Below are positions 17,198-59,000 of a DNA stretch of 64,000 bases, piece after piece. Every line of letters begins with the position of its first letter. Position 1 is the stretch's first letter. Source of the DNA: Roseibacillus sp. (GTDB lineage: Bacteria; Verrucomicrobiota; Verrucomicrobiia; Verrucomicrobiales; Akkermansiaceae). A program made the position numbers and the translations under genes. Below the pieces are notes generated by a model. It saw nothing but the letters and a program-made list of their open reading frames with translations, was not told the DNA's origin and ran no database searches. The stretch lies in contig CBDEUM010000012.1 in the NCBI GenBank assembly GCA_965242925.1, forward strand, positions 32,001-96,000, in the 5' to 3' direction.

Positions 17198-20100
17198 ATG
17201 ACCCTGTCCAAGTCCACCCGAGAACCCCTCGCCCGGGGGAAGCCCAACCCCTCGCCCAATCCTGGCCCTGATTGTTCTGACACTGGCGATGCCGGGCTGT
17301 AAACCGACGCAACGCCCCAACCAGGATTCCATTGTGGGCAACGATGCCGCTCAAATTCGCGAGCTGGTAAGCGTGGAGGAACGGATCCTCGCCCTCACCC
17401 CACAACTCCGCGAGCTCTCGAAAAGCATGCAGAACCTGCGCCTCCCGGACGGCCCCCGGCTGATCCACTTTGCGTCCGAGGTGACCGTGCGGGAAGCAGG
17501 GCAGACTGCGGACACCTCCGCCCCCGGGGATCTCGACCTGCTGCGCCCCCTCCTCAAGGAGGTGGCCTGGATCGAGCAGGCTTCCTTTTACTTCATCGAT
17601 GGGAGGTTTCCGGACGAGGAGGAGGATCTCTTCGAGGGTGAAGTGGGATTCCGTGGACTGGCCAAATTGAAATCCGGCGGATGGCAGGGACTGATCGGCA
17701 AGTTTCTCATCAAGTGGACCAGGGGCACAGGCGAGGAGGGTGCGGAATGGAAGATCAGCGGCTGGGAACAAAAGGAACTAGTGACCATGGCGAGTGCGCG
17801 GCGTCTCTTTGGCGATGCGCTGGGCACCGCCTTGCCCCGCCCGGCCGACCGGGCCCTCGCACATCGCTCTCCCCACCAGGAGGCCGCCATCAAGTTCTAC
17901 CAGGGGGCGCGAAGAAACATCCGCATCCCTACTTCGCTCCGATCTCCGTCAATCAGAAGCCCGGTCTCGCGGTGGTGGACATCGATTCAGATGGCGACGA
18001 TGACATCTATGTCACGGTCCGGATCGGGCGCAACCTGCTCTTCGAGAACCAGGGCGACGGCACTTTCGTGGAAGCGGCGGAGAAGTATGGGATCCACTTC
18101 ACCGGGCACTTCACCTGTGCGCTCTTCGCGGACTTCGACAACGACGGCGATCCGGACCTCTTCGTGGGCCGTAGCTTGAAACCCAGCCTCTACTTCGAGA
18201 ACCGGGCGGGCCACTTTTATCCCGGCCCGCAGCAGAAAGAGTTCCCGATGACGGCGGTCTCGGCTTCCGCGGCAGACTACAATGGCGACGGCTTGCTCGA
18301 TTTGTACCTGCTGACCTACCGTCCGTCGACAATCGGCGGCAACTCAAGTCCCTCGGGCGGCTCGGGCGGGGTCGGAGCACAAACCGAACACTGGCCTGAT
18401 CACTTTTTTCCGCCCGGGATGGCCGCGGAGTATTACCGCCGTCACAGGGAAGCAAACTCGCGAAACGATCCCCAGTTCCCGAACCTCCTCAACCAGATCG
18501 GACCGCCGAACATTCTCTATGTGAACCGCGGCAAGGGGCGCTTTGAAATTGCGGAGGAGAGCACCCAGTTGGGGATCTGGAGAAACTCCCTGCAGGCCAC
18601 CTGGGCGGATTATGACGAGGATGGCGACCCGGATGTCTTCATCGCCAACGACTGGGCGCCCGACAACCTCTTCCGCAACGACGGAGAGTCCGGCTTCACC
18701 GACGTCACGAAGGAGGCCGGCCTCACCGAATTCGGGTTCGCGATGGGGGCTACCTGGGGCGACTACGACAACGATGGCCTGCAGGACCTCTACGTCTCCA
18801 ACATGTTCAGCAAGGCGGGTGCCCGCATCACGAACCGCGTCCCGGGAATCGCCGAGATCTACAAGCAGTCCGCGGCCGGTAATTATCTCTACCGTCAGCG
18901 GCCCAATCACACCTTCGAGCTTGTCTCGGGAGACAAGCCCCCTGCCCTCGCGGTCACCAAGGCAGGCTGGTCGTGGGGTGGCCAGTTCGCCGATTTTGAC
19001 AACGATGGCTTTCTCGATCTCTACGTGCTGAGCGGATACTTCACCGCGCCCGAGGCCGTCTCATCGGAGCTGGACTTGTGAAGTAACCTCTGGCGCACGG
19101 TCGTGCGCACCGACAGCAACCTCGCCCGGCGCAGCTTCCGCTTTTCCGAGGAATGGAGGCGCCGCACCGGGGATGCCCCGCTCACCCCGCAGATTGACCG
19201 ACGCCTGCAGGGAGGCCGGGAGGAAGACGGCCGCTATGTCGTCCATTCCCTGAGCGGAATGGAGCGCAACCACTTCTTCATGAACCGGGACGGAAAAAAA
19301 TTCTCCGATCTCTCGCTGATTTCCGGGATCGACAATCCGGCGGACAGCCGCGGATTCGTCCTGCTCGATTACGATCACGACGGCTGGCAGGACCTCGCCC
19401 TGGTGAACGCCAACGAACCGCTCTTCAACATCTACCGGAATCAGACGGGCGAGGCTGAAGGAAAGGCGGACCACCATGTCATTGCGATTCGCTTCGAGGG
19501 CGGAGCCCGAGGAGAGGCCAGCCCCAACGAGAACTACGCTTGCCGCGACGGATATGGCGCCTTGGTCACCGCCGACCTGGGTGACCTGACGATCAAGCGC
19601 GAACATCGCTGCGGAGAGGGCTTCAGCGTGCAGAACAGCCGCACCATGGTGATTGGGATCGGCTCACGCGAAATGGTTCCCTCCCTCACGGTTCGGTGGC
19701 CATCAGGCAAGACAACCACCCGGGAGAACGTGGCAGCCGGCACCCTTCTCATCGCCTACGAAAATCCCACCCACTCGGGCGCCAGCACGCAGTTCACGCT
19801 GAGCAACTACCACGATGTTGTGCCGCGGAAGCAGGCCCCCGTCCCTCTCACCAGCTTTCCGATCACGGAGCCCGACGCCACCGCACCCATTCGGGTCTAC
19901 ACCACGATGGCCACCTGGTGTGTGGCATGTCAGTCGCATCTCCCGCAGCTCCAGGCCCTGAAGAACGGACTGGGTGAAGGGGCCGCTCTCATCGGCATTC
20001 CGATCGACCCGGACGATAACGCCAAGATGCTCACCGAGTACGCCGAGGAGTGGAAGCCTGCCTATCGCATCCGCGCCGACCTGGAATCCGACGCGCGCGC

Positions 20101-20248
20101 CGCAGTGACAAGGTTTCTTGCCGAGCAATCCGGCGAAGAGGCCGCCCTGCCCTCCACCATCATCACGAACGCCGAAGGCAAAGTCCTCAAGGTGATGTCC
20201 GGCGTGCCGGATGTCTCCATGGTTCGCAAACTCGCGGCCGGTCCTTGA
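17198..20248 (+). CDS. Putative selenoprotein: FG-GAP/VCBS repeats + ASPIC/UnbV + redoxin (CVAC) lipoprotein; in-frame TGA at 19079-19081; frameshift at 17903-17907 and possibly near 17235-17240
   Basis: DxDxDGxxD repeats; ORFs 17681-19081 and 19103-20248 share a frame separated only by TGA; DSRG, GEGFSVQNS, VRWPSG (UnbV); ATWCVAC; lipobox-like LAMPGC at about 17280-17300; start uncertain. Confidence 0.75.
19079..19108 (+). promoter_or_regulatory. UGA plus SECIS-like hairpin
   Basis: TGA + 11 nt spacer + GCGCAC-GGTC-GTGCGC perfect 6 bp stem with GGUC loop. Confidence 0.75.
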
Positions 20249-20253
20249 GCAGA

Positions 20254-23200
20254 TCAACGGGCCTGGACGCGTAAGCGGGAGAAGAAGCGCTCTCCGAGGC
20301 TTCCCGCAGGATTCAGTCGCACCGTCATGAGCACCCGGCCATCTCCGAGATTGACCACGCTGACTACCACCGCCTCCGCTCCGGCAGCCTGCCAGGATTG
20401 CAGGTCGTTGGAGTAGTCGATCTCGATGGTCGCCCCGTCCGCGGCGATACTGACAGGATAGATCAGGGTCGGCAGGGAGAGCATCTGTCCCTCGATATCG
20501 TAGTCCTGCATGGTGAAGGTCGCCTGAAGAGGACCTGCGCCGAGACCATTTCCAAACGCGTAGTCGAGAAGATCCGTAATCCCATTGCCATCCGCATCGC
20601 CCAACGGGTTTACGGGCAGCGGAAGGGCGTCCGTGTCATTCGGATTGCCATCCGGGAGCAGGCTCGCGCGCCAACTCGCAGGGTCATCCGGATCCGGGCT
20701 GGTCTCGGGCGCGATGAGGACGATGCTGTTTCCAAGCCCGTCCGCTTCCTCGGGCCACGGGGCGAGGTCGTTGTAGCGGAACTCCGCGATCGTGCCGTTG
20801 AGAGCGTCCTCCAGTTTCACAGTGTCGCCGCCGTTGTTGAGAGCACTCATATTCGCAAACACGCCGGCCACCGGCAGACCGATGCCGTGCACGCCTTCAA
20901 AGGCGGCGAGATTGCGGACCACGAGAACCCTCGCGCCAGGAGGCAGGCTGGTCACCGCACTGCCGGAGAAGTCGAACTGGATTCCTCCCGTGAAGCGAAC
21001 ATTGGTGAGATCGAGGGTAATCGAATCGCTGATGTTGATGAGTTCAATGAACTCGGTCAGCTCGCTTCCGAGTGGATGATACATGATCTCGGTGATCCGG
21101 AGGTAGAGCTGCGCGTCCGAGGGATTGCCCACGTAGGTAGTCGCACTGATCTCGTTGCCGGCCGAATCCGAAAGGGTGACGGTCTCGCCGAAGCTGGAAA
21201 GGTGCCCCTCGTATGCGCCCTGCACGAAGAGGCCCTCGCCGCCCTTGGGACTCTGAGTGCGGGCGCGGAAGGCGGTGACATCGGGGCTGACGTAAAGCGA
21301 ACTGCCCGCCGGGATGACGGTCCCGCCCTGGAAGGTAAACTCGATCCCGCCATCCAGCTTCCAATCCGAGATGTCGACCGCGATGTCGTTCGGATTGGTC
21401 AACTCGATGTACTCCTCGTCCTGGTTTCCCGAGGGAGGCGCAAACTCGAGCGCTCCGAAGTTGATGATCGGTTCGCCGGGAGGGCCCACTAACTGGGTCC
21501 CGCCGTAAAGTTCGGGCCTGATGATCATGTCGCTGCTCCCGGTGCCTTGGTTGAGACCATGAATAGCGAGGATATTCTGCCCGGCCTTCAGGGCTCCGAG
21601 GTGCTGCGTAATGTTGTAGATGTCGAAGCTCCCGGCATTGGCCTCGTGGCTGGCGTTGAGGGCCGCCGAGTTCCAGGTCACCGCCCCCGGTGCGTTCTCG
21701 GACTGGACCACCGTGCCATTGATGAAGGCCACGAACCCGTCGTCCCACTGCATGCGCAATTCGAGGCTGTCGAAGGCACTGGGATCCGCCACGTTGAAGG
21801 GGATGCGGATGTAGATGCTGTTGTTGCTCCTCATCTGCGTGTTGACGTCGGTGCCGATCAGGGATTGGTAACCACTGGTGCGCTCGTAGCCGATTCCGGT
21901 GGTCCCTGCGATCCAACCGGAGGTGTCGAAGGGCTCGAAGGCCGCGAGTCCGATCCAGGTAAGTCCCAGGCTGTTGTCGGAGGGGACAAAAGCATGCGAA
22001 GGCGCGGGGGCCTCTATCAGGGGAGTAAGCTGGAACGAGGCCGCACCGGTCTGCGGCAGGGGAATCTCCCCACCGTTGCCGACCGTCTGGTTGTTGTATA
22101 TCTCGTTGCGCCGCGCCGGAAGGTACTCGTTCTTCCAGCGCAGGACGGCCTCCGCCATCGACTCCACCGCGGGATTGGTATTCGTGTGGGAAACCGGCGA
22201 ACCGCTGCCCTGGAGCCACGATCCCCACTTGACAAAATCGCGCTGGGCATCCGAGGGGACGATCGAGGGCGGATCGATGAGGGCCGATTGCTCATCCAGT
22301 CGCCGCTCGTACCAGCGTTCGGCGAGAGGGGTGCCCGGCTCCTGGAGATAGCGGTCTGAGAGCGTCCGCATCCTGCGCAGGATCATGGATCGCAGCGCGG
22401 AATTGCCGAACATGTGGGAGACCAATCGGATCGAGCTTCCAGTCACCACGAGACCATGGGAGTATAGATTGTTGTCGAAATAGGTGTTTTGGGAGTTCCA
22501 GACGCGACCGCCGGAGAGGTCGAGGTCCCAGGGCAGGAGCGCCCACTCGTTGGTCTTCCCGGTGTCGCGATAGATATACCAGTTCTTCGAGTGCATATCG
22601 ATGTTCCGGATCACGGAGTTGGCGGCCAGCAGGTTGACGCACTTCGGAATGTCGATGTTGTCGTAGAGATAGTTGATGCGCGCGGTTCCACTCAGGGTGA
22701 GATTGTCGATGAGGGCCTGCAGGTCGGAGTTGTTCTCGAACTTGCGGTTCTTTTTCTCGAAGCCGCTGTTGGCGGAGCCGGTCAACCTGTTGCTGTAGGC
22801 CTTGTAGAGGGCACCATCCCTGTTGAGCCCGGCCCGCTCGAGGTAGATGTCGTCCCCGTCCTCCACAAAATCCGCGACGCTGAAGAAGGCCCCGTTCTGC
22901 TCGACGCGGACGGTGAAGGAGAAGTGGGCGGGGACACCCGACTCGCGCATGATCTCATAGGCAATCGGGTGGCGGACCTTGGACTTGTCCGCCCAGTTGG
23001 TGAGCAGATCGATATCGGCCACGCGCGGGATATCGGGATCGAGGCTCCACTGGAATCGCTGGGTCTTGTTGAAGTCGATGTTATAGCTCTTCTTGACGAA
23101 GCCACCGGTCGATTGACCGTGACGACTGAAGTGCACGTTGTCGTAGAACTGACCGAGGTAGTAGAGCGCGCCGATGGTCCCGTTCGTATTGTTGGCCGAG

Positions 23201-24723
23201 TTCGGACTCGCCACAAACCACTCCAGCACCGAAAGGTTGGTCTGGATCGCCGGGTCGTGACCGACAGTGCCGAAGTACTGGTGTGAATCGCCCGCATCGC
23301 GAAAAGCGGGCTCGCGCGTCTCGTTGCCCACCGCATCAAATGCAGAAAAGCGCCAACGCGTCATTTCACCGGGGACGATCTGGTTGGCCGGGATCACCGC
23401 GGTGTATATGTCATCGCCTGCCACCGCGTCCGCTCCGGTCCCGTTATCGAACATGAAGACCGAGGCTTCGCCGCTGAACATGCGGCGATAGTAGAGCCGG
23501 ACCGAGGTGATCGGACTGACCGAGCCGATCACTTTGGCCGTCACGGTCAAGGCGCCACTCACGGGCTGGGGCGGGTTCTCGGTCACCTCCCTGAAGATCG
23601 GCCCCGACTGCTGTCCGCCGGTATTCGGGGCGCCGGGGGTCGGGTTGTCGAAGTAAACCCATGCCGCCGAGGCCCCCGGGTCCGCGGTGGTCGAGACCGT
23701 CAGGGAGATCTCCGGTTTGCTCCCGGGATCAATGTCCCAATCCATGAACATGGGATTGGCGTCATTGAGAATCATCAACTGACCCCGCTGGGGAGCGCCG
23801 GGATTGTCGACCCAATCCTGCACCAGCGCAGCGATGTCCCAGGTTGCCACCGGGGTCTGTCCCGGCGCAGCGGTGAAGGCCGCCGCCGGTGCGTTTGCCG
23901 CGTAGTAATCCACCAGGTCGCTTCCCGAGTAGGCTGCTGCGATGCTGTCAACTCCGTGATTGGCGTCGGGAACTGCGAAGACTCCGAGATTTGCGGAGAC
24001 CGCGGGTGAGCCAAAGACAGAGTTCGCCACCGCCCCACCCCAGGACAAGGTCGCAGAGTCCACCACACTTCCACCTGGGATCGTGCTGAGGTTGCTGGAA
24101 AAATCGAACCACATGTAAAGCTGCGTTCCCACTGCCCCGCTCCCAAGATCGAAGCTGTCCGCATTCGACGTCTCGCTCGCCGACTGAGTTCCGGTCAGCG
24201 CGACATTCGCGTAGTTTCCCGGCGAGCTCCAAAACGGGGTGAGGTCGAGATTCGAGGACGAACCCGGCACGCCGAACCCGAATGACTGGTCATCGAATTG
24301 CGGTGGATAGACCGGGCCAAACGCGCTCACGATGGTCGTTCCGTCGGGGGCCACCAGGCCGAGGAACTCGCCGCCGGAGCTCAGCCGGAAACTGGTATGG
24401 AGTTGCGAGGCTGGATCGACACGGTCCTTGTTGGAGGCAAAGACCACAAGATACTGGTCCGCGTTCAGGGTGATGGCAGGGAAGGTCCACTTGGTAAGAT
24501 TGGCGGCGTTGTCGGTCAGATGATACCCGTCAAGTTGCACTGGAGCGGGGCCTGGATTATGAATCTCGATCCAGTCCGAAAAGTCACCATCCTCATCCTG
24601 GTAGGAGGTGTCGTTCACCGACATGAATTCGGAAATCAGGGGAGCGGCGCTCAGCAGGGACGCGAAACAGAGCAAGGCCAGGATGCCCGCATGTCGCAGG
24701 CGCAAATTACTTTGGATGATCAC
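20254..24723 (-). CDS. Secreted lamin-tail-domain / CotH kinase-family multidomain protein
   Basis: ISEFMS.N...DWIEIHN (LTD, recurring); KKSYNIDF, D...KNWYIY, LPWDLDL (CotH); C-terminal SNDLQSW...FFSRLRV. Confidence 0.85.
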   Translation of the reverse strand: MIIQSNLRLRHAGILALLCFASLLSAAPLISEFMSVNDTSYQDEDGDFSDWIEIHNPGPAPVQLDGYHLTDNAANLTKWTFPAITLNADQYLVVFASNKDRVDPASQLHTSFRLSSGGEFLGLVAPDGTTIVSAFGPVYPPQFDDQSFGFGVPGSSSNLDLTPFWSSPGNYANVALTGTQSASETSNADSFDLGSGAVGTQLYMWFDFSSNLSTIPGGSVVDSATLSWGGAVANSVFGSPAVSANLGVFAVPDANHGVDSIAAAYSGSDLVDYYAANAPAAAFTAAPGQTPVATWDIAALVQDWVDNPGAPQRGQLMILNDANPMFMDWDIDPGSKPEISLTVSTTADPGASAAWVYFDNPTPGAPNTGGQQSGPIFREVTENPPQPVSGALTVTAKVIGSVSPITSVRLYYRRMFSGEASVFMFDNGTGADAVAGDDIYTAVIPANQIVPGEMTRWRFSAFDAVGNETREPAFRDAGDSHQYFGTVGHDPAIQTNLSVLEWFVASPNSANNTNGTIGALYYLGQFYDNVHFSRHGQSTGGFVKKSYNIDFNKTQRFQWSLDPDIPRVADIDLLTNWADKSKVRHPIAYEIMRESGVPAHFSFTVRVEQNGAFFSVADFVEDGDDIYLERAGLNRDGALYKAYSNRLTGSANSGFEKKNRKFENNSDLQALIDNLTLSGTARINYLYDNIDIPKCVNLLAANSVIRNIDMHSKNWYIYRDTGKTNEWALLPWDLDLSGGRVWNSQNTYFDNNLYSHGLVVTGSSIRLVSHMFGNSALRSMILRRMRTLSDRYLQEPGTPLAERWYERRLDEQSALIDPPSIVPSDAQRDFVKWGSWLQGSGSPVSHTNTNPAVESMAEAVLRWKNEYLPARRNEIYNNQTVGNGGEIPLPQTGAASFQLTPLIEAPAPSHAFVPSDNSLGLTWIGLAAFEPFDTSGWIAGTTGIGYERTSGYQSLIGTDVNTQMRSNNSIYIRIPFNVADPSAFDSLELRMQWDDGFVAFINGTVVQSENAPGAVTWNSAALNASHEANAGSFDIYNITQHLGALKAGQNILAIHGLNQGTGSSDMIIRPELYGGTQLVGPPGEPIINFGALEFAPPSGNQDEEYIELTNPNDIAVDISDWKLDGGIEFTFQGGTVIPAGSSLYVSPDVTAFRARTQSPKGGEGLFVQGAYEGHLSSFGETVTLSDSAGNEISATTYVGNPSDAQLYLRITEIMYHPLGSELTEFIELINISDSITLDLTNVRFTGGIQFDFSGSAVTSLPPGARVLVVRNLAAFEGVHGIGLPVAGVFANMSALNNGGDTVKLEDALNGTIAEFRYNDLAPWPEEADGLGNSIVLIAPETSPDPDDPASWRASLLPDGNPNDTDALPLPVNPLGDADGNGITDLLDYAFGNGLGAGPLQATFTMQDYDIEGQMLSLPTLIYPVSIAADGATIEIDYSNDLQSWQAAGAEAVVVSVVNLGDGRVLMTVRLNPAGSLGERFFSRLRVQAR

Positions 24724-24790
24724 GAGAGTTGGGGGTCGCGAGTGCGGCTGATGGAACCAGCGGAACCGAAACTATAGGAGCGCATGGATA

Positions 24791-26465: not shown

Positions 26466-26470
26466 CACCG

Positions 26471-27456: not shown

Positions 27457-27526
27457 CTTAACTTCTCAGCAGCCACCTGACCGGGAACTGCCCCCTTCCT
27501 TCACTCCATCCAGCACTGATTCCATC

Positions 27527-31985: not shown

Positions 31986-32167
31986 GGAGTGCATTGATCC
32001 TGCTCAGATCCCGATGGTTCGTCAACGGTCCGGCAAATGGGCAACGCCTGCCCACACACAATCTCTCTTCCACACTCTCCCCCGACACCGTGATCACCCT
32101 CTGGCAAGCATCCCCACCCAGGCTGTCTGTGCTGGACACCAGGGCCTCAGGGCATACATTACCACAC

Positions 32168-32845
32168 ATGAAAACATACATTCTGGCAGCCATGGTACTG
32201 GCAGGCATCACCCAACTGAGCCTTGCAAACCTGAAAATCCCCCGTTCTGTCTATCAGGTTGAGGACATGGAGGAAGCCATGGCCACAGCCACCGAAAAGG
32301 AGAAGCCTCTCATCTTTGTCTTCACTGACCCGGGCACCACATGAGGATCTTGCCTGGCCGCCAGTTCGGAGGCCTTCAAGTCGTTTAAGTCTGTCGGCGT
32401 GGTTGTTTTTGCCAATTCGAGAACGGATTTCGGCAACCTTCCCGCTGGAGCCAGGGAAGTGCGCGCCAAGGGCGGCAACACCATTCCGATGGTGTTTGTC
32501 ACAACCGCTGACGGACGGAAGGGCATTGACGCGATCCCCTACACCTCTCTGAAAAACGACATGCGGAAATCCGTGCGCACCCTCCGGACCACCCTGGAAA
32601 ACGTCGATGTGCTGAATGGTGGCGCGGAAGCCGACCGCAAGACGACGGAAGATGATGCGACCTCTCCTGCCGCCGACCAGCCTGAGTTCACGGAATGGAA
32701 GAACACTGCCGGGCGCGTCATCGAGGCCGCCGCCAGGGAAGTGAAGGGCGGCAAAGTCCTCTTCCTCCTCCCGAACGGAAAGACGGTCTGGTACGATATC
32801 TCCAACCTTTCCAAGGCAAGCCGGAAGAAGCTCCCCGGGGAATAG
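32168..32845 (+). CDS. Putative selenoprotein: secreted thioredoxin-like protein with UxxC motif and C-terminal SHD1-like domain (TGA 32342-32344 = residue 59)
   Basis: EEAMATATEKEKPLIFVFTDPGTT-TGA-GSC reads in frame into ORF 32399-32845; IPMVFV cis-Pro-like motif; EWKNTAGRVIEA...ISNLS (SHD1-like). Confidence 0.85.
32342..32380 (+). promoter_or_regulatory. UGA plus SECIS-like hairpin
   Basis: TGA + 11 nt + GGCC-G-CC-AGTTC-GG-A-GGCC; lower stem CTTG(32349-52)/CAAG(32377-80). Confidence 0.7.
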
Positions 32846-43928: not shown

Positions 43929-43948
43929 GGCCAGGACAGGCAGCCGGT

Positions 43949-47881: not shown

Positions 47882-50800
47882 TCAGTTCCAGACCCGAAGA
47901 CGGGCGAAGAGCCGGGCCCCTGCCGGGTCGGGGGAATCCGCGCGCCAGGTTTCAATCACCAGTCCGTCGTTATTTCCGCTCGGCGTCTGACTCACCAGGA
48001 CTCCTCCCGCCGTCCAGGTCACGAGATCAGAGGAAAACTCGACCGCGTAGTTCAGTTCATCCGCGGCCACCTCCCGGGTGAAGGTCAAGGTGAGAAACGA
48101 CTCCTCGCCGTTGTCCATCGTAAAAATCCCGGCCCCGGCCACCGGCAGAAACTCCTCGGAGGCCACCATGGGATCTCCCCCGAGGAAGAACTCCAGCATG
48201 GTCACCATCCCGTCGTCGTCTCCATCCCCGAAATCCTCGGAAACCTCGTGATGCTCTTTCCAGGCGGCGTAATCCAAGGTGTCATCGTCTCCCGGTGTTC
48301 CTTCAGGATAACGACTGATGCGCCAGTTGGCCGGGTCATTGTGATCCGGCCTGAGAATTTCGTCCACATTCCGGAGCACCAGACTGAATTCACCATCCCC
48401 GCCAGGAGGCCAGGGAAGCTTATCGGCATACTCGTCAATGTCATGAATGGTGGTGCCTGCTCCAAAGGAGAGTTTCAGGCGCTCGCCACTGTTGCGCAGG
48501 TTGTCATTGGGATATTCCCCGGCAATGGGCAGTCCTGCCCCATAACGCACCTCAAAGGCGGCCCGATTCTTAACCACCAGGACGTATTCTCCCGGCTCCA
48601 GCGTCTCCATCCCGCTGCCCCCGAAGTCAAAGTCGATCCCCTTGGTAAAGCGAACGTTGCGCAGGTCGAGGGCGGTGGGTCCGACATTCTTCAGTTCCAG
48701 ATACTCGAACTCGTCCCGGTTGGTGGAAATGAGGCGCTCTTCTCCCACTGGCTCGGGCGGGTGGTACATGAATTCCGAGATGCGCAGGTCACGCAGATGA
48801 TCGGAGATATTGGGCGCAGTGGCCTGGAACTCCACGGGCTGGGACCAATGGCTCCACCGGCCGGCGGCATCCTTCATCCGCACCCGCGCCCGGTAGGTCC
48901 TGCCCACCCTGACCGCCAGGGGAGGAAACTGGTAGGCCCCATCAAAGGCTGCCAACTCCCCCGACTTGAAGCCCCCTCGATCTCGTAGATGTTGGGCCGG
49001 GCAGGATCGTAATCCGCCACCGCCGGATTGTGGACCTCGGCCAAGCGCCACTCCATGGCCGCGAAACGCGACCGACTGGGGCTGGAAAAGGTGCTGCAGT
49101 TGAAGGTCAGTCCGTCCGACGGATAGCCTTCCGGCCCGGTATAGGTGATCGTCGGTTTTCGGGGGACATCGTCCTCCTGGCTCAGAAGCGTCCTGGACAT
49201 CCAGTTCCCCCGCGATGTGATCCATGTCTTCACGACGCGCACCATCCCGGCAAAATCCCTGGTGGAGGAGATATCGTAGTAGCGGTCCTTGTGATTCAGA
49301 CGCGGGTGATTATCCCACATGCGCCGATCGACATCCACGAGGGAGGGCTCTTCCGGGGTGTAGACGAACTTCATGGTCTCATCCACCAGCTTGTAGCCCT
49401 CGTCACGATTGAAGAGCAGGTCGAGAATCTCGCGCACACGGTTCTGGTAGTCGGTATTGAAGGCCGGATTCTGGGCCACCTTCGATTTGAAATCGTGATT
49501 CCCATTGCCATACATGTTGTTGGCGAAGGTGAGATCAAGATCCCAGGGGAGGAGCTCGAATTTGTCGGTCTCCGGGTTGTGGTAGTAGAAATAGTTCTTA
49601 CCGTAGGCGATATCGTAATGGTGAATGGCTTCCACCACCGTGCGATAGCTGAAGTATTTCTCGATGTTGAAATTATCCTGCCACCATTGCGCCGAGGGAT
49701 TCCTGCCGCGGTAACCGCTGATAAACGCGGAAACATCGGAGCGGTTTTTGACCTGGGTGGGGCCCTGGTTGTTGGATTCCCCGCTGTGTCCCTCGATCTT
49801 GTAGAGATTGCCGTCAGGCAGACCGTGCTCGTCCAGAAACTGCCCGTCCAACTGTTCGACGGCGAGGAAGAGCCCATAATAATCTGTCCCATACTGCGAG
49901 CGCTCCGGACGGGACTGGTCAATGACGTAGAACTGCACGTGATGGGTCTTGCTGGCTTCCACTCCGCAGAGCTCAAAGAGACGGAATCCCACTCCCTCGA
50001 AGAGTCCCTGCTCTCCCCGGTGCTGAAAATTCACCTGCTGAACGATGGAGGAGAAATTCAGTTTGCTCCACTTGGTGTCGTACTCGTTTCCGTATTCATC
50101 CCGGGCCTGGAATCGGTGCCCGCGATTGAAATCAAACTTCCAGAAATTCTTGCCGAACTGGAAGCGGTGCACTCCTCCCCGGGGCCGGTAACGGATATGG
50201 TCGTAGACCCTCCCTTCGTAGACAAGCGTCCCGGGCCAGAGATATTCCGATCCTCCGTATCCCCCAAACTGCGATTCGTCCACCCAGGAGGACTTGCTCA
50301 GCAGGAAGTAGGTCGGGATACTGGACATCAGTTCTCCCGGATAAGTCACCGGGGGGTCTCCCTCCCGGATCCCACCCCTCCAGTCGGGGGTCCCATTATA
50401 GACAAAGTAGGCGAAGTTGGATTGCGGATCATCCTCGTAGGGAACCTGCACCGAGCTTCCTCCGGCATCCTCTACCGTGATGCGATAACGTACCAGGTAG
50501 CGGTTCCGGTTCACATTGAAAGGCACGGTCCCGGTATAGACGCCGTCCCCGGCCTCTTCATCGTCGCCCTGGCCATCATCGGTCATGGGCAGATCCACCC
50601 ATCCACGGTCATAGGCCGGATCAAGGTTTGCCGTCCCGTTCTGGCTATACTTGAGGTAACGGCCGAAATAAGCCCCGGCTCTCACCAGCTGGTAGGACAG
50701 CGTCACGGAGTCCACCCCATCCGGATCAGTCACCTGGGCCGTGATCACGACCGGTTCGTTGGAAACCGGTTGCCGGGGAGAGTGGGAGACCTGCCTCGTC

Positions 50801-51366
50801 TGGGGCGGCGCCTCGGTGGAGTAGGTCACATTCCGCAGACCCGGGCTGGGTCGCCCGGATCTCCAACTCCCGCCCAGATCGGTTTCCAGGGCCGGATGAA
50901 TCAACTGGATGGACGGGCTCACTCCTGCCACCAGGTCCCCGACGGTGGGCCAGGGAAACCCCAGACGATAATCCACCTGGCTCACCACCGCACCTTCCGG
51001 ATCCCGCAGGTTCACCGTCTCCCCGCTGTTGCGGAGTCTGCCACTCCACGGCCCGAGCGCTCCACCCCGCCGGAACTTGCTCTCGATGGTCACCGGATCC
51101 TGGGCGATGATCAGATACGCTCCGCTCTCAATCCTGGTGGCCGGCGGAAAGAGGAAATCGACCCCTCCGGATATTTCCCAGCCCTCGAGACTGACTGCAG
51201 ATTCAGTGGGATTGAATACTTCAATAAACTCCGCCGTCACCGTCTTATCGGCCTCGTCGTAGTGAATTTCGTTGATGACGAGCGAAGGCACGTCGAGTTG
51301 AGCGAAGGCACTCTGGACTGCGGTCAGCAGGCCGACGACATAAAGGATACGGCGGACGGATTGCAT
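47882..51366 (-). CDS. Secreted lamin-tail / CotH kinase-family protein (frameshift in C run 48972-48976)
   Basis: VINEIHY..EFIEVFN; KNFWKFDF, KNYFYY, LPWDLDL; ISEFMYHP; C-terminal SSDLVTW..FARLRV. Confidence 0.82.
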
Positions 51367-51518
51367 GGATCGGGGGTATGGGGAAATACAACCTGCCCCG
51401 GCCTCTGCGTCAAAGCAAACCCTGTCACGCATAAAATCCGGCCCGTCGTCCCATGCACTTTTGACTGTAGAAAGATGCATTCCGAGGTTAAAGGAGTGGA
51501 TCCGGAAGCTCTGAATCC

Positions 51519-54512
51519 GTGAATTACTGCTCTAACAAATTCCCTTCCCGAGGGCTGATGGCTGGCCTCGCTGTAGTCCTCATGGGATTGCTTGCTACCC
51601 AGGCACGAAGCGATTCACGGGATCACGAACAGGGCCTGCAATTCTTCGAGCGCAGGATTCGCCCCGCCCTGGTGACGCACTGCTACGAGTGTCACTCCGC
51701 AGGTTCCAAGAAGGTGGGCGGCAAGCTCTACCTGGATCATGCAGGGGGGCTCCTGCGGGGTGGCGAGTCCGGCCCTGCGATTGTCCCCGGCCGCCCCGGG
51801 GAGAGCCTTTTCATCCGGGCGATCCGGAAAGAGAATGACGACCTCGTCATGCCCCCGGACGACAAACCTTCCCTGCCGGAAGCTGTCGTTAACGATCTTG
51901 TCGAGTGGGTGAGACGCGGGGCTCCCGACCCCCGTGCCTCACCTGGCGGAAAGAGCCCACAGGAAGTAATGCCCGATGAGGCCGCCCTCTGGTCCTTCCA
52001 GCCACTCGGAAAACCAACTCCCCCTCCGCTACGCGACCAGGACTGGCCCAGGAATGACATCGACCGGTTCCTCCTTGCCCAACTGGAGTCCCGGGAATTC
52101 CGGCCCGCCGATGATGCCCCGCCCGAAACGCTGATCCGTCGACTCTACTGCGACCTCGTCGGATTGGCTCCGACCTACGACGAGATCGGTGAATTCCTCA
52201 GCGCCTGCCAGCAGAACAGGCAGTCTGCAGTGGAGGCCCTGGTCGATCGCCTCCTGGCCTCGCCTCATTTCGGTGAACGCTGGGGCCGGCACTGGCTGGA
52301 TGTTGGGCGTTACGGCGAATCGAATGGCAACGATGGACTGGGGCGCAATCCGACCTTCCCCCACGCCTGGCGATACCGGGACTACGTCATCCAGGCCTTC
52401 AACGACGACGTCCCCTACGATCTCTTTCTGAAGCAGCAGATCGCCGGGGACCTCCTCCCCTCCTCCTCCCCCGGGGAACGCCACCGCAACCTGACCGCCA
52501 CCGGCTTCCTCGCCATTGGACACAAACCGGCTGCTGCCATGAACGAGAACTTCGCCATGGACGTGGTGGACGACCAGATCAACACCGTGGCTACCGCGAC
52601 GATGGGACTGAGCGTCGCTTGCGCGCGCTGTCACGACCATAAACACGACCCCATCTCAACCCGGGACTACTACGCCCTCGCCGGGATCTTCAGGAGCACC
52701 GAGACGCTCTGGGGAAAAGCGGCCAACGAGAAACTCACCGCGCCAGCTACCCCCCTCCATGACCTGCAGGTCAAGACCGGGAAACCAGAGGAGAAGTCGG
52801 CTCCGGAATTTGCCAAGGGTTACGGCGAGGCGATCAATGCATTAAAGCCCGTCCTCTACGCGTCCCTGTCGGGTCCGGCGGAAAACCTCGTAATCGAGAA
52901 AGGGGTGACGCTCGCGCCAGGGACTTTTGCCAGGACGGAGGAAGGTCGTCTGCAAGCCGGGTCCGCCCTTCCGGTCAACAGCTATTCCGTCTCCTTCTGG
53001 TTCCGCAATGATCTCGGTAATAGCACGCGGGCCATTACCGCCTACCTCTTCTCCCATGCCGTGCTCGGTGACAAGGAACAGAAGGGAGATCACCTTGGAA
53101 TTGGTGGCACCCATGACCCGGGCCGGTCCGGCAAACTCTTCCTCTGGAACGGCACCAGGCAGAACGAGGGCGCAGCCGGCACCAGGGTCCTCGCTCCCGG
53201 CAACTGGAATCATGTGGTTCTTGCCCGCGACGGCAAGCGCATGCGCCTCTACCTGAACGGAGACCCCAAGCCCGAAATTGATGCCGAGATGCAGGTGGCC
53301 GCCCCTGTAAACGGGACCATCTCCATCGGCGCCCGCAATGACCGCTTCGCTCCTCTCAAGGGTTTCCTCGCTCACCTGGCGGTCTTCGATCGGAGCCTGG
53401 GGCCGGGTGAGGCCAACCGTCTACATGCCGCATCCGGCCAGAAACCGGGAACCCGGGAAGCACCTAGACCAGCTTTCGCGATGGGAGTAAGGGAGGGCAA
53501 GGCGATCACAGACTGCAAGATCAACATCGACGGCAACTCAAAGAAACTTGGATCCAGCGTCCCCCGGGGATTTCTTCCTGCCTGCTCGACGGAACTCAGT
53601 CCCCCCATCATCGGAACGGAGGCGAGCGGACGTCTGCAACTGGCGGACTGGCTCACCCGGGGCGACCACCCGCAGACTGCCCGCGTGATGGCCAATCGGA
53701 TCTGGCTTCATCTCTTCGGCCGTGGTCTGGTGACCACTCCTGATGATTTCGGCGTCTACGGAGCCCGCCCCTCTCATCCCGAACTCCTTGACCACCTCGC
53801 CCGGCGCTTCATGGAGGACGGCTGGTCGACAAAGAAACTGATCCGCACCATTACCCTCAGCCGCAGCTACCAGCTCGACAGCTCCTGCCAGGATAATCGG
53901 TTACTGGAAGCCGACCCGGCAAACGTCCTGGCCGGAAGACACCAGCGTCGAAGCCTCGACGCGGAGTCCCTGCGCGACCGCATCCTGCAGGCTGGCGGCA
54001 CGCTTGACCTGGAACCCGCCCGGGGCTCCGCGATCGATGATCTCGATATCCTCCTCAACTGGCCGCCGGGAGAGGCCAAGTATCTCCATGAACCAAGCAC
54101 CCACCGCAGTGTGTATCTCTGCATGCTGCGCAATGCGTTGCCAAAGGAACTGAGCTCCTTCAACTTCCCTGATGGCATGACCGTGACAGGCCAGCGCAGC
54201 ACGGCCACTCCGCCTACCCAGGCCCTCTTCTTCCTGAACAATCCCCTGCTCATCGCCCAGGCCCGATCCCTGGCCGAACGGATTCTCGCTCAGTCGGTTC
54301 TCTCCGACCAGCAGGCTAATCTCGAATCCAGAGTCACCACCGCCTATCGACAAATCCTGCAGCGGAATCCTTCCAGGGAGGAAGTGACCCGCGCCCTCTC
54401 GCACGTGCACGATCAGGAAGTGGACCTCTCCGGGGCTGGCTCAACCCTCCGGGCGTGGGCAAGTTTTTGCCAAGCGTTATTGGCAAGTAACGAGTTTCGT
54501 TATATTGACTAG
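51519..54512 (+). CDS. Planctomycete cytochrome c / DUF1549 / LamG / DUF1553 protein
   Basis: FFERRIRP..CYECH, GERWGRHWLD, CARCHDHK, RVMANRIW, HPELLD, SNEFRYID. Confidence 0.92.
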   Translation: MNYCSNKFPSRGLMAGLAVVLMGLLATQARSDSRDHEQGLQFFERRIRPALVTHCYECHSAGSKKVGGKLYLDHAGGLLRGGESGPAIVPGRPGESLFIRAIRKENDDLVMPPDDKPSLPEAVVNDLVEWVRRGAPDPRASPGGKSPQEVMPDEAALWSFQPLGKPTPPPLRDQDWPRNDIDRFLLAQLESREFRPADDAPPETLIRRLYCDLVGLAPTYDEIGEFLSACQQNRQSAVEALVDRLLASPHFGERWGRHWLDVGRYGESNGNDGLGRNPTFPHAWRYRDYVIQAFNDDVPYDLFLKQQIAGDLLPSSSPGERHRNLTATGFLAIGHKPAAAMNENFAMDVVDDQINTVATATMGLSVACARCHDHKHDPISTRDYYALAGIFRSTETLWGKAANEKLTAPATPLHDLQVKTGKPEEKSAPEFAKGYGEAINALKPVLYASLSGPAENLVIEKGVTLAPGTFARTEEGRLQAGSALPVNSYSVSFWFRNDLGNSTRAITAYLFSHAVLGDKEQKGDHLGIGGTHDPGRSGKLFLWNGTRQNEGAAGTRVLAPGNWNHVVLARDGKRMRLYLNGDPKPEIDAEMQVAAPVNGTISIGARNDRFAPLKGFLAHLAVFDRSLGPGEANRLHAASGQKPGTREAPRPAFAMGVREGKAITDCKINIDGNSKKLGSSVPRGFLPACSTELSPPIIGTEASGRLQLADWLTRGDHPQTARVMANRIWLHLFGRGLVTTPDDFGVYGARPSHPELLDHLARRFMEDGWSTKKLIRTITLSRSYQLDSSCQDNRLLEADPANVLAGRHQRRSLDAESLRDRILQAGGTLDLEPARGSAIDDLDILLNWPPGEAKYLHEPSTHRSVYLCMLRNALPKELSSFNFPDGMTVTGQRSTATPPTQALFFLNNPLLIAQARSLAERILAQSVLSDQQANLESRVTTAYRQILQRNPSREEVTRALSHVHDQEVDLSGAGSTLRAWASFCQALLASNEFRYID

Positions 54513-54524
54513 GAGAACGAGGCG

Positions 54525-55865
54525 ATGCGAACACTCTCTCGACGTAGATTGCTCCAGGCCACCGGTTGTGGCTTCGGTTCCCTCGCCCTCAATGCCCTCT
54601 GTGGAACCAGCGCCTCCGCAGGGAGCCTCCACCGCAAGACGCCTCCCATCCCGGCTCGGGCCAGACGCGTCATCTTTCTCTGCATGCCGGGTGGACCGGC
54701 TCACCTCGACACCTTTGACTACAAGCCACAGACCGGCAAAACGGAGCATCCGGGATCCGCTTTCCAGTTCAGCCAGCACGGCGAAAGTGGCCTCTGGGTT
54801 TCTGAACTCTATCCCGAAGTGGCCCGGCATGCCGACAATCTCTGCGTGCTCAACGGGATGTATGCCGACACCGGGAATCACGCGCAGTCCTTCCGGCAGA
54901 TGGTCACCGGCGAACGACTGCGCCCTCGCCCCAGCCTGGGCTCATGGGTGAGCTACGGCCTCGGGACTGAGAACGGGAACCTTCCAGGCTTCGTCAGCCT
55001 CAACGCTCACGAGCAGTACGTGTCCTCCGGGGAGTTTCTTCCCGCCCAGTTCACAGGCACTCCCATCGGAACCAACGGTGAGGACATGTCCCTGGCCACC
55101 ATCTCCGATGTGGGCAGCGACCACCTCTCCCAGCGAGCCAAGCGACGCCAACTCGATCTCATCCAGGCCATGAACCACGGTCACCTTGAAGCTCGCGCCG
55201 ATGACCCAAGACTGGAGAGCGTGATCGAATCGATGGAGCTTGGCTTCCGGATGCAGGCCCTCGCCCCCTCTCTGCTTGACGTGAGCACCGAATCCCAAGC
55301 CACCCTCGCGCGCTACCGGGTCGGCAGGAATATCAAGGTGGGCACCTGTCGGCCGTCCGACTTCGGACGCCAGTGCCTCCTGGCCCGCCGCTTTGCGGAA
55401 GCGGGCGTGCGCTTCATCCAAGTTTCCCACAACGGCTGGGATCAGCACAAGAACCACCGCCGCGACCTCAAGGCCAATTGCGAATCGACTGACGCCCCCA
55501 TTGCCGCGCTCCTTGGGGACCTTGATCATCGCGGACTCCTCGACGACACCCTCGTGGTGTGGGGCGGAGAATTCGGGCGTCCCGGCCTCAAACCATCCGA
55601 CAAGAAGGACGAGACGGGTCATCAACCGGCCGGATTCACCTTCTGGCTGGCGGGCGGTGGAGTGAAGCGCGGACTGGCCTACGGCGGGACCGACGGCACC
55701 GGTTCCAAGGCGGTGGAGGGAAAGATTCACTTCCGCGACCTGCACGCCACCATCCTGCACCTCCTCGGTCTGGAACACGACAAACTCACCTTCCCGCATC
55801 AGGGTCGCCTCCACCGTCTTACCGGGCCGGAAGGCGGAAAGGTGGTGAGCGAAATCCTTGCCTAG
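54525..55865 (+). CDS. DUF1501 domain protein (Tat signal)
   Basis: [36 protein letters not shown]. Confidence 0.92.
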
Positions 55866-56013
55866 GTGACCCGCTATAAGAAGAAAAACAGAGAATTCCG
55901 CGTCCGCCCCTCCGGTCTCCTTCCCAGAAATTGTCCGGACCACGTCACGTTTCGACACTCCGTTCCCGCTCTTGCTGGCCCCATCGCGTCTGCTACGGTT
56001 TTGTTCTGGAACA

Positions 56014-59000
56014 ATGAAACGCACGGTCACCACCCGCCTCTCGTGCACGCACGGCCTGGGACTCCTCCTCGGCCTGGCGATCCTGTTCAGCGCCTGCAAC
56101 GAGAACGGTGGCAACTCCGGGAACGAACCTGCTCCTCCAGCGCGCCAACCGCCCCAACCGGACAAGGGCGCCGCACAAGCTCCTCCCTCTTCTTCGGACG
56201 CCACCCCCAACCCCGTGATTCCTCCCAGCCCCGCCGTGAAGGCTGGCCCCGCGGAAACGGCTCCCGGCCTGGGCCAGGGGAACCTCATTGCTCCTCTCCG
56301 CGATGCCTACGAACGGATGGATCCGGGCAAGGACGGCTGGGCCTCCGAGGCATTCAGCGCCTCGGCCAGCGAACAGTTGCACCTTCTCGAAGACCTCCTC
56401 GGAGGCCCCGATGACATCACGGCTGCCTCCCTGGGAGAACTAGCGGTGGCGGAGGTATCGACCACCGCCCTGCGGCCAGAGAACCTGTCACTCACTTTCG
56501 ACGACGGCCGCTTCCTCGTCCGGCGTCCCCCTGCCTTGCCGGGCCATAATACACCCGGGATCGCAGCCCTCTCCGCCACCCTGAACAAGCTGCGCCCCGA
56601 GGAGGGCTCCATCGATCCCCACATGAAAATCTTCCGCGTTTTCCCCGGGGAAAAAGGCACGGCCAAATGCCTGGTGCTGGTGGACATCCTCAACCATAGC
56701 GGGCAGTCGCGAACCCAGATCAATGCGACCTGGTCCTGCAACTGGAGGCTTTCCCCCGACCAGTCCCCGCTCCTGACCTCGATCGCGCTCACCAGATACG
56801 AGGAAATCACGCAATCCGTCGACTCCCGGCCCCTTTTCGCCGATGCCACCCGGACCCTCCTCGACCGGGAGGATGCATATCACAAACAGTTCCTCCATTC
56901 CTCGGACCACTGGCGGGCCCACCTGCCCCGCGAACTGGGACTCGACCCGGTGGCCAATCATGGCCTTGCCATTGGCGACATCAACGGTGACGGCCTCGAC
57001 GATCTCTATGTATGCCAGCAGGGGGGCCTTCCCAACCGGATGTTCCTCCAGAATCCAGACGGCACCCTGCGCGACATCACCCGGACCAGTGGTGCCGGAT
57101 GGCTTGAATACTGTGCTGCAGCGCTCCTCGTCGATCTCGACAATGACGGCGACCGTGACCTGATCGTTTCACAGGACTTTCGGGTGATGGTCATGGCCAA
57201 TGATGGCAACGGGGCCTTCACCCTTGCCTTCGGTTCCTCCACCAAGGCCCAGTCATTCTCACTGGCAGCTGCCGACTATGACAACGACGGCCTCGTCGAT
57301 TTCTACATCTGCGGATACAACCCGTCCCAGTCCAAACTGCGGGGCGGAGCGATGGGAGAGCCCATGCCTTTTCACGATGCCAACAACGGCGGACCCAACA
57401 TGCTGTGGCGCAACGAGGGCAACCTGGGATTCAAGGACGTCACCGGAGTCACCGGCATGAACGCAAACAACACCCGCTACTCCTTTGCCGCCTCGTGGGA
57501 AGACTACGACAACGACGGTGACCAGGACCTTTACGTTGCCAATGACTATGGTCGAAACTGCCTTTACCGCAACGACGGTGGTTCCTTCTCTGAAATTGCA
57601 GCCGGGCTGCACCTTGAGGACACCTCTTCCGGCATGTCGGTGAGCTGGGCCGACTTCAACCTCGATGGCCAGATGGACGTCTACACCAGCAACATGTTCT
57701 CCAGTGCCGGAAACCGCATTACCTACCAGAAACAGTTCAAGTCCGACCTGCCCGAGGACGTTCGGAAACAATTCCAGCATCTTGCAATCGGGAACTCCTT
57801 GTTTGAGGGCGTTGCCAATAAGCCCTTCAAGGACGTGGGGATCGGAGCCGGGGTCAACATGGGCCGCTGGGCCTGGGGCTCAAAGTTCGTCGATTTCAAC
57901 AACGACGGCCGGGACGATATCCTGGTCGCCAATGGCTTCATCACCACTGCGGACACCGGCGACTTGTGAAGTGTCTACTGGCGGCAGGTCGTGTCGCAAT
58001 CCCCCGTCGATGATTTCTCCGAACCCGCCATCGCCTCCTACAAGCAGGGATGGCGGGCGCTGAGCCGTCTCCTGCACGAGGACCGCAGCTTCAGCGGCAA
58101 CGAACGCCACTGCGCCTTCCTCAACACCGGTAGCGAAGAGGCGAGCTTTGCGGATGTATCAGCTCTCACCGGATTCGGTTTTTCTGACGATGGTCGCGGC
58201 CTTGCCACGGTCGACTGGGACTTTGACGGGGATCTCGACGTCTGGATGACAAACCGCAACGCCCCTCGGGTGCGTTTTCTCACCAATCACACGCCGCCCG
58301 GCCAGAAGTTCATTGCCATTAAGCTCCGCGGGAACGGCAGGACCTGCAACCGTGACGCCATCGGGGCGCGCCTGGAGCTAACCCTCGAAGGGGTGGCACC
58401 AGCCACCCGCATCCGCACCCTGCGCTGCGGGGAGGGCTTCCTCTCCCAGTCCAGCAACTGGGTTCACTTCGGCATCGGTAAAGCCACCGGAATCACCAGC
58501 CTGGTAGTCAAATGGCCTGCCGGACCGGCCGAGAGCTTCACCGGCCTGCAGGCGGGTACATTCTGCCTCATCCAGCAGGGCACCGGGGCGTCTCGCCTCT
58601 TCTCCCCACCAGAACAGCGCGTTGTCTTGACTCCGCGGGAACAGACTCCCCTTCCTCCCACCGGAAACACACGTACCATCGCTCCCGCAGGACTTCCCCT
58701 GCCCCGGCTGGAAGTGATCGGGGAAAACGGGGAACTGCAACCTTACGCCCCCGACGGAAAACGTCCCCTCGCCATCAATATCTGGTCAAGTATCTGCGCA
58801 GCATGTGTGGCCGAACTATCCGAGTGGTCAGAGCACCGTGACGATTTGGCAGGAGCGGGCCTCGACGTGCTCACGCTCAGTACCGACCACCTCGATGGCG
58901 CGGCTCCACCGGAAGCGACGCGGGCCGCCCTTGCCAGGACCAGTTCCCCCTTCCCCAACCTGTCCATCTCGGAAGCCGCCCTCAAGGGTCTCGACTTCCT

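Follow-up and report, generated by a model that had tools for sequence, protein, structure and literature searches.

A 64,000-nucleotide (nt) stretch of the Roseibacillus sp. genome (contig C12:32001-96000, below called the window and numbered from its first nucleotide) carries three genes, termed here genes 1, 2 and 3, whose in-frame TGA codons very probably encode selenocysteine (Sec), as judged from their sequence and that of their homologs. The recoding mechanism proposed for them is strongly supported: a selenocysteine insertion sequence (SECIS) hairpin downstream of the UGA would recruit SelB with Sec-tRNA(Sec), and the ribosome would insert Sec instead of terminating. The genes, the predicted Sec codons and the putative hairpins are as follows.

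17253..20248, plus strand: gene 1, coding for a CRTAC1-like FG-GAP/ASPIC-UnbV protein with a C-terminal TlpA-like CxxC domain (from translation and Pfam)
19079..19081, plus strand: predicted Sec codon (UGA) of gene 1, in the motif D-L-U-S-N-L-W-R-T-V-V
19093..19108, plus strand: putative SECIS hairpin of gene 1, GCGCAC-GGUC-GUGCGC, with a 6-bp stem, 17 nt from UGA to loop, -9.4 kcal/mol
32168..32845, plus strand: gene 2, coding for a 225-aa predicted secreted protein with a putative signal peptide, a thioredoxin-fold domain (U-G-S-C), a linker and a C-terminal small beta domain
32342..32344, plus strand: predicted Sec codon (UGA) of gene 2, residue 59, directly before helix 60-75
32356..32374, plus strand: putative SECIS hairpin of gene 2, GGCCGCC-AGUUC-GGAGGCC, with a 7-position stem including one G.A mismatch, 18 nt from UGA to loop, -9.2 kcal/mol
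56014..60069, plus strand: gene 3, coding for a predicted lipoprotein with an FG-GAP propeller, Sec, UnbV_ASPIC, a TlpA-like CxxC domain and TPR (from translation and Pfam)
57967..57969, plus strand: predicted Sec codon (UGA) of gene 3, in the motif D-L-U-S-V-Y-W-R-Q-V-V
57981..57997, plus strand: putative SECIS hairpin of gene 3, GCGGCA-GGUCG-UGUCGC, with a 6-bp stem including one G.U pair, 17 nt from UGA to loop, -7.3 kcal/mol

Each TGA links two open reading frames (ORFs) of the same frame: 17681..19081 and 19103..20248 in gene 1, 31994..32344 and 32399..32845 in gene 2, and 55972..57969 and 57991..60069 in gene 3. An earlier note on this DNA had reported the TGAs at 19079, 32342 and 57967 as interruptions of continuous frames, and this holds at all three loci; the end of gene 2, placed there at about 32552, is to be moved to 32845. 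The read-through product of gene 3 comprises 1,351 residues. In genes 1 and 3, the Pfam FG-GAP matches lie 5' of the TGA, and UnbV_ASPIC and an AhpC/TSA-like domain lie 3' of it. Both genes themselves terminate in TGA, indicating that TGA still serves as a stop codon and that the genetic code is not reassigned. The spacer between TGA and hairpin is exactly 11 nt at all three sites, and the loops are GGUC, AGUUC and GGUCG, as first described. The hairpin type of gene 3, with the loop GGUCG, is the commonest form in the FG-GAP/ASPIC Sec family to which genes 1 and 3 belong.

This family is large and widespread. A 300-residue piece around site 1 was searched against 101 genomes of the order; 38 of them match, and all but 5 of the listed rows have exactly one TGA, with several genomes contributing 10 to 17 one-TGA rows each. 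Among the close homologs (fetched loci together with this genome), 35 of 35 carry the TGA at the same column of the motif D-L-U-S-x-x-W-R-x-V-V, followed by a hairpin; a single distant homolog, with Cys in place of Sec, lacks the hairpin. The genome itself contains 13 loci with the Sec motif, one of them being a second haplotype copy of gene 1 on contig C17, and a strict 29-nt motif gave 12 matches in the genome against none for the reversed control. With one genome taken per species, a scan for a 33-nt motif found it in at least 116 stretches, the record titles of which name Verrucomicrobiota, Planctomycetota and Acidobacteriota. A perfect hairpin of at least 5 bp begins 9-16 nt after the TGA in 112 of the 116 listed stretches, and the loop is GGUCG or GGUC in 97 of them; the motif fixes part of both stem arms, and only its free positions are informative in these counts. 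The strict motif was also present in 3 of 151 genomes sampled across the phylum, a figure that shows patchiness and not rarity, as the sample held one genome of the motif-bearing families of the order.

If the three TGAs were true stops, each locus would code for two proteins, the second re-initiated at a nearby GTG: an FG-GAP protein and an ASPIC/thioredoxin protein from genes 1 and 3, and a 58-aa peptide and a 148-aa protein from gene 2. GTG codons indeed occur shortly 3' of the TGAs (at 19103, 32399 and 57991), and gene callers list the fragments as separate proteins. However, the codons between TGA and GTG are conserved as coding in all homologs (S-x-x-W-R-x-V-V and G-S-C-L-A-A-S-S). Homologs ending at the TGA, which the earlier note had named as a finding that would speak against recoding, were not seen: the 35 close homologs of genes 1 and 3 and all 11 congeneric orthologs of gene 2 code on. 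Termination would moreover cut the thioredoxin fold of gene 2 at its active site, the larger piece losing UxxC and helix 1, and the Cys homologs of gene 2 are single unbroken ORFs. Together with the covariation of the hairpins at the RNA level, these observations make true termination exceedingly unlikely.

The hairpins are conserved beyond chance, by compensatory changes. In an alignment of 118 sequences of the gene 1/gene 3 family, the 6-bp structure is paired in 85.5% of cells, against 22-68% in controls with slid partners, and the covariation score was reached by none of 500 shuffles. In only one pair are both partners free to vary: the wobble position of the Arg codon pairs with the first position of the codon three places further downstream. 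This pair is realised as GU (46 sequences), AU (33), GC (10), CG (5), UA (1) and UG (1), and the 19 rows unpaired there are mostly of the site-1 type, pairing one column over. A synonymous base thus tracks an amino acid change three codons on, which places the constraint on the RNA and not on the protein. The gene 2 hairpin, compared in 10 sequences, is paired in 88.6% of cells against 20-63% in the slid controls; three of its pairs show double changes (8 cells), a result matched by 0 of 500 shuffles. Its loops in homologs are AGUUC, GGUCU, AGUUU, AGUCU and AGUAU.

The genome was searched with profiles for the Sec-decoding machinery. The assembly comprises 4.58 Mb in 42 contigs, with 89.87% completeness and 3.18% contamination. 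A tRNA-Sec scores 59 bits against a gathering score of 47 and is identified by ARAGORN as tRNA-SeC with anticodon tca (UCA). SelB scores 287.5 bits (cut-off 242). SelD (366.6 bits) has one in-frame TGA, reads S-S-C-A-G-U-A-S-K-L and is itself a selenoprotein. The alpha subunit of formate dehydrogenase, FdhA (C22:62350-65202, plus strand), scores 720.6 bits against a cut-off of 666, contains one TGA in the context N-C-S-R-A-U-H-A-P and has a hairpin with the loop GGUCU beginning 12 nt downstream of it; by its sequence it is a canonical selenoprotein and serves as an internal positive control. The presence of tRNA-Sec, SelB, a Sec-containing SelD and a canonical Sec-FdhA supports the initial proposal that this organism decodes Sec. 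The machinery search that had been suggested with it thus recovered tRNA-Sec(UCA), SelB and SelD; selA was not found in the assembly. The predicted selD hairpin (L009:1531-1580, contig C14), CGCGCA-GGUC-CUGCGCG, starts 28 nt after the UGA; its loop is the same as that of site 1 and resembles that of site 3, but its distance from the UGA is longer.

The three hairpins can also be compared with the bacterial SECIS (bSECIS) model of Zhang et al. (2026; PMC13188914), which gives an apical loop of 3-9 nt with a G within its first two positions, an upper stem of 4-16 bp, a UGA-to-loop distance of 16-37 nt and a minimum free energy (MFE) of at most -7.5. Stems of 6, 7 (with one mismatch) and 6 bp and spacings of 17, 18 and 17 nt place all three sites within this geometry, and sites 1 and 2 lie below the energy limit, at -9.4 and -9.2 kcal/mol. 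Rfam at gathering scores gave no SECIS family over the 64-kb window and one tRNA only; this tRNA gene (1983-2065, minus strand) is the sole Rfam match above gathering score in the window.

Several results weigh against reading the three TGAs as Sec codons, and they concern the machinery, the hairpins, the Sec column and the state of gene 1. The selA gene was not found in the 89.87%-complete assembly, as searched with TIGR00474, PF03841 and a tblastn of congener SelA. The hairpin of site 3, at -7.3 kcal/mol, falls 0.2 short of the -7.5 threshold, and the MFE fold of the 50 nt at this site differs from the proposed hairpin. The 50-nt folds compared with shuffles give z = 0.57, -1.25 and 1.10, an energy no better than that of shuffled sequence, so folding energy provides no evidence for a SECIS here. 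The motif S-x-x-W-R-x-V-V is in part a protein motif, CRTAC1 having S-N-N-W-L-R-V-V; as it is shared, sequence conservation at sites 1 and 3 is not purely RNA-driven. The Sec column of genes 1 and 3 is rarely Cys: one homolog has Cys, CRTAC1 has Phe, and the rows examined in the supplement of Kim et al. (PMC4807772) have Gly. Without a conserved Cys in this column elsewhere, these two genes show the usual Sec/Cys signature only weakly. Finally, the N-terminal part of gene 1, about 220 residues (17253-17918), is out of frame owing to a 1-nt deficit at 17901, and orthologs match two frames.

The missing selA and the lack of Cys at the aligned residue of distant FG-GAP homologs would fit another mechanism, in which a tRNA of near-cognate or suppressor type reads the UGA as Trp, Cys or Arg and the hairpin is a generic stimulator of read-through. 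Yet the other Sec components are complete and stand beside canonical SelD and FdhA genes, the selD hairpin of this genome shares the GGUC loop, and gene 2 shows a classical Sec/Cys alternation in its UxxC site. In addition, selA scores above the cut-off in 17 of 18 congeneric genomes, the lone exception being 70% complete; given these congeners and an assembly that is 89.9% complete, its absence probably reflects an assembly gap. Insertion of a standard amino acid by such a tRNA is very unlikely.

The frame problem in gene 1 bears on a further explanation, according to which the TGAs are nonsense mutations or sequencing errors and the genes pseudogenes or artefacts. The gene is frameshifted in an assembly that is a 42-contig bin, 89.9% complete with 3.2% contamination, and that includes a contig of a second haplotype. 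Its hydrophobic N-terminal segment has no preceding start codon, and three sequencing runs differ from the window over 17225-17264, the expected start region. The contigs of runs X1 and X2 and of RNA library X15 have an extra base at 17901/17902, and contig C17 has an extra A at window position 17901 and a frameshift of its own elsewhere. As other assemblies lack the deficit at 17901, the frameshift is local to this assembly or strain. Contig C17 (C17:31860-53243) matches C12:33977-54517 (window 1977-22517) in the same gene order with 82-98.6% identity, and its copy of gene 1 is almost identical, TGA and hairpin included; the contig probably represents a co-binned related strain. Against mutation or error stand the recurrence of this codon at one column in 13 paralogs, across dozens of genomes in the order and in no fewer than 116 stretches of three phyla, and the TGA shared by all 11 congeneric orthologs of gene 2. 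A contig of run X1 (18470-19506), possibly from the source sample, also keeps the TGA, its 7 differences from the window all lying 5' of 19079, and the deficit at 17901 is absent from the other assemblies compared. Error or decay at these positions is extremely unlikely. Parts of gene 1 upstream and downstream of the TGA are covered by contigs of RNA library X15, which do not prove transcription.

The strongest Sec/Cys signature of the three comes from gene 2. Among the 101 genomes of the order, 25 match it, and the five best non-self matches (43-64% identity) have one TGA each. Within the genus, orthologs at E <= 1e-10 are present in 11 of 19 other genomes, all with one TGA and with 54-94% identity; the alignments of ten span 222 or more of the 225 residues, and the remaining ortholog is a fragment of 70 N-terminal residues. 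The motif is T-T-U-G-x-C, with the variants U-R-P-C, U-H-A-C and U-P-T-C among homologs, and those without a TGA have T-T-C-G-I-C or T-T-C-P-L-A. In 15 aligned homologs, the column is Sec in 10 and Cys in 5, the alternation that the earlier note had proposed to look for; for genes 1 and 3 the same check found TGA in 35 of 35 close homologs and a single Cys homolog. Seven columns are invariant in the 15 sequences, including the Sec/Cys column and Pro107.

An AlphaFold2 model of gene 2 has a mean predicted local distance difference test score (pLDDT) of 87 and places U59 immediately before helix 60-75. Among solved structures, Foldseek matches this model best to the periplasmic oxidoreductase DsbH (2ju5, E = 2.9e-4) and to thioredoxins with template modelling (TM) scores of up to 0.64 (target-normalised). 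Pfam gave nothing above threshold for gene 2, Thioredoxin_7 reaching E = 0.25 and 11.9 bits against a cut-off of 27, and NCBIfam, searched with a 186-aa cut including the thioredoxin-like domain, returned no family at E <= 0.01, NF041046 included. The C-terminal small beta domain is presumably SHD1-like. The protein may be a periplasmic thiol/selenol-disulfide oxidoreductase, with a chance near even. Table 1 of PMC13188914 lists thioredoxin-fold UxxC selenoproteins such as Trx, a thiol:disulfide interchange protein and a 'UGSC-containing protein' (NF041046). As the x-x residues vary within the gene 2 family, 'UGSC' is no signature of it, and the family adds another UxxC selenoprotein of thioredoxin fold for which there is no named model.

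In genes 1 and 3, the features 3' of the predicted Sec codons are the following.

19550..19747, plus strand: UnbV_ASPIC domain of gene 1, 3' of the Sec codon (Pfam)
19901..20188, plus strand: TlpA/AhpC-TSA-like thioredoxin-fold domain of gene 1, with W-C-V-A-C (CVAC at 19919-19930)
58357..58560, plus strand: UnbV_ASPIC domain of gene 3 (Pfam)
58735..59079, plus strand: TlpA/AhpC-TSA-like domain of gene 3, with C-A-A-C at 58795-58806
59383..59970, plus strand: TPR repeat region of gene 3 (Pfam)

FG-GAP_3 and UnbV_ASPIC score above the Pfam cut-offs in gene 1 (153.4 and 50.6 bits) and in gene 3 (132.3 and 55.5 bits). AhpC-TSA, at 24.8 bits in gene 1 and 22.8 bits in gene 3, remains below its cut-off of 26, and the match of the C-terminal domain of gene 1 to TlpA is weak; CxxC is present in both. 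Thiol-redox motifs are found in all three proteins, as originally noted: CVAC in gene 1, U-G-S-C in gene 2 and CAAC in gene 3. Signal peptides or lipoboxes had likewise been ascribed to all three. By eye, with no predictor used, gene 2 has a signal peptide (MKTYILAAMVLAGITQLSLA) and gene 3 a lipobox, LFSAC (...LAILFSAC); for gene 1 the feature is unverifiable in the window.

In genes 1 and 3, the final propeller blade and the ASPIC domain flank the Sec site. Sec at this site may be a redox-active nucleophile recycled by the fused CxxC domain, an assignment with a chance approaching even. Oxidised Sec, as a selenenylsulfide or selenenic acid, would be reduced by the CxxC domain, which would get electrons from the membrane through a DsbD/CcdA-type protein; the genome has one DsbD_TM gene. 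Sequence features suggest that most members of the CRTAC1-like family are lipoproteins. The calcium-type DxDxDG motifs of the propeller and D-L-U-S..W-R.V are invariant in the 13 paralogs, and the widely kept Cys residues are that of the lipobox position (10 paralogs), the two of CxxC (10 and 9) and one further Cys (8). UnbV_ASPIC has 29 matches in the genome, 13 of them in Sec-motif genes; a thioredoxin-like domain follows ASPIC in 11 of the 13 Sec-motif paralogs and in none of the 16 other matches. The paralogs are not independent, and this co-occurrence is a pattern and not a statistic.

Recycling in cis is weakened by the 34 Sec forms with complete C-termini, from this genome and its relatives, of which 19 have the thioredoxin domain and 15 do not. 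A strict rule linking Sec to a fused CxxC domain, which holds one way in this genome, was thus rejected. The short Sec forms (L043, L045-L048, L053-L058 and those of contigs C34 and C13) end soon after ASPIC, with no thioredoxin domain. Four of the 15 carry U-S-C, where the Cys could be an in-cis resolving residue. In the short forms, Sec might cycle with a partner in trans, and secreted thioredoxin-like selenoproteins of the gene 2 type would be candidate partners. A second Sec codon in the short relatives was considered as well; the sequence past their terminal TGA looks non-coding, and these are real stops.

The three genes do not appear to form the system that the earlier note had envisaged as a candidate. 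They lie 13 and 25 kb apart among unrelated genes and appear to be dispersed members of a Sec-rich exported proteome, not one operon. Their neighbours in the window include CotH/LTD giants, YkuD transpeptidases, peptidases, PSCyt/DUF1553-DUF1501 pairs and GFO/IDH oxidoreductases. Two large proteins combine CotH kinase and lamin-tail domains (20254-24723, minus strand, 1,488 aa; 48874-51480, minus strand, 867 aa). Genes for PSCyt1/PSCyt2/PSD1 (DUF1549/DUF1553) and DUF1501 proteins at 51519-55865 are located on the same strand directly 5' of gene 3, and DUF1501, with about 89 matches, is extremely expanded in the genome. An operon with the DUF1553-DUF1501 pair was rejected: the arrangement is found near gene 3 only, possibly also 5 kb from a paralog on contig C37, and does not recur by the paralogs.

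Further Sec candidates were noted elsewhere in the genome. A second exported thioredoxin-like candidate (C22:23068-23832, plus strand) has a signal peptide, the motif S-A-S-W-U-G-G-C and a hairpin with the loop AGUUG; its N-terminal small beta domain resembles the C-terminal one of gene 2, in which the domain order is reversed. An AhpD/CMD-like candidate (C14:245521-246237, minus strand) has C-Y-Y-U-T-L-S-H (CxxU) and a hairpin of -16.5 kcal/mol with the loop AGUU, 11 nt after the TGA. An FG-GAP/VCBS-like secreted protein (C34:28896-30716, plus strand) has its in-frame TGA in another context, S-T-U-C-S-T-F-C, and is rich in Cys towards its C-terminus; it possibly represents one more kind of selenoprotein. 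NF049945 (TonB FCYXU) and NF041054 (WAxxUGC) had no match above their cut-offs in the genome. A genome-wide scan by codon log-odds and hairpins, in two versions, served for leads only. Its codon model separated the frames poorly, and the first version missed known sites; the looser version placed hairpins at 170 of 1404 candidates, for the most part antisense noise, without recovering site 3, and six leads were read.

Besides SelD, FdhA and one AhpD-like candidate, the genome encodes two thioredoxin-like Sec genes and at least 13 of the FG-GAP/ASPIC type, which would give this organism, found in seawater metagenomes, a sizeable and mostly exported selenoproteome. The window stretch itself occurs in seawater and marine metagenome runs of many studies.

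The splitting of these proteins by gene callers, also predicted initially, is evident in public databases, where five of the six fragment sequences of the three genes exist as separate proteins. Their cluster-mates are named 'ASPIC/UnbV domain-containing protein', 'VCBS repeat-containing protein', 'thiol-disulfide isomerase/thioredoxin', 'TPR repeat protein/peroxiredoxin' and 'hypothetical protein'. Because annotation pipelines bisect these genes, protein inventories are systematically wrong at these loci, and the error would extend to proteomes, pangenomes and domain statistics across several abundant marine and soil phyla.

The FG-GAP/ASPIC Sec family has been mentioned in print but is not catalogued. 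It is absent from the 119 prokaryotic selenoprotein families in Table 1 of PMC13188914, the text of which is also without PF13517, PF07593 and PF01839, and literature searches coupling selenoprotein or selenocysteine with FG-GAP, UnbV or CRTAC1 in bacteria gave no relevant paper. Candidates of the same domain composition are listed in S9 Table of Kim et al. (2016, PLoS One; PMC4807772), in whose supplementary file 'ASPIC' occurs 4 times. For the two rows examined in that table, a SECIS is given for one and none for the other, and the homologous residue is Gly.

It is possible, though doubtful, that the FG-GAP/ASPIC(-TlpA) lipoproteins constitute an uncatalogued class of extracytoplasmic selenoenzymes in which Sec was gained where the wider family has no Cys, and not by a swap of Cys to Sec. 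If so, genomes holding between 10 and at least 17 such paralogs would put aerobic marine Verrucomicrobiales, along with Planctomycetota and Acidobacteriota, among the bacteria richest in selenoproteins, contrary to the view that large selenoproteomes belong to anaerobes; according to PMC13188914 the richest selenoproteomes are predominantly those of anaerobes. With Sec outside the thioredoxin fold and at a non-Cys position, the role of selenium there would become testable. The family also represents a clean natural set of more than 100 SECIS variants under coding-frame constraint, usable to refine SECIS prediction.

As a recoding system, the three loci resemble the SelB/SECIS type, with E. coli fdhF as the archetype, in that the hairpin lies within the ORF right after the UGA and has a small apical loop with an early G, and in that tRNA-Sec, SelB and SelD are encoded in the Roseibacillus genome. 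The SECIS of E. coli fdhF has the loop GGUC and begins 11 nt after the UGA. The hairpins of the window differ in their short stems (6-7 bp) with no lower helix established, and their hosts are predicted exported proteins that are not molybdoenzymes.

Gene 2 is comparable to thioredoxin-fold UxxC selenoproteins and to DsbH (2ju5): Sec is first in UxxC at the N-terminus of helix 1, an invariant Pro occupies the expected cis-Pro loop, and Cys homologs exist. In contrast to the UxxC selenoproteins listed so far, it bears a putative signal peptide and a further beta domain at its C-terminus and does not match NF041046, from which it is also set apart by the variable x-x residues (GS, GP, GT, RP, HA, PT).

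With TlpA/ResA-type periplasmic thiol-disulfide reductases, genes 1 and 3 share W-C-x-x-C or C-x-x-C and weak matches to AhpC-TSA, Redoxin and TlpA. They differ in the sub-cut-off scores, in the fusion of the domain to propeller and ASPIC, where it does not stand alone on a membrane anchor, and in the proposed substrate, which would be the Sec of their own protein. The candidates in PMC4807772 are likewise adjacent pairs of gene identifiers split by annotation, and they are likened to genes 1 and 3 by their domains; they come from organisms of another phylum and are table entries without a family analysis. A counterpart of solved structure is human CRTAC1 (cartilage acidic protein 1, PDB 9etn), which has the same FG-GAP propeller and ASPIC/UnbV combination (phmmer E = 2.6e-11, the sole match above threshold being the propeller) and shares the motif after the Sec column (S-N-N-W-L-R-V-V compared with S-N-L-W-R-T-V-V). 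CRTAC1 is a eukaryotic secreted protein with Phe at the Sec column, which indicates that Sec in genes 1 and 3 sits at the propeller/ASPIC junction, where the wider family does not have Cys.

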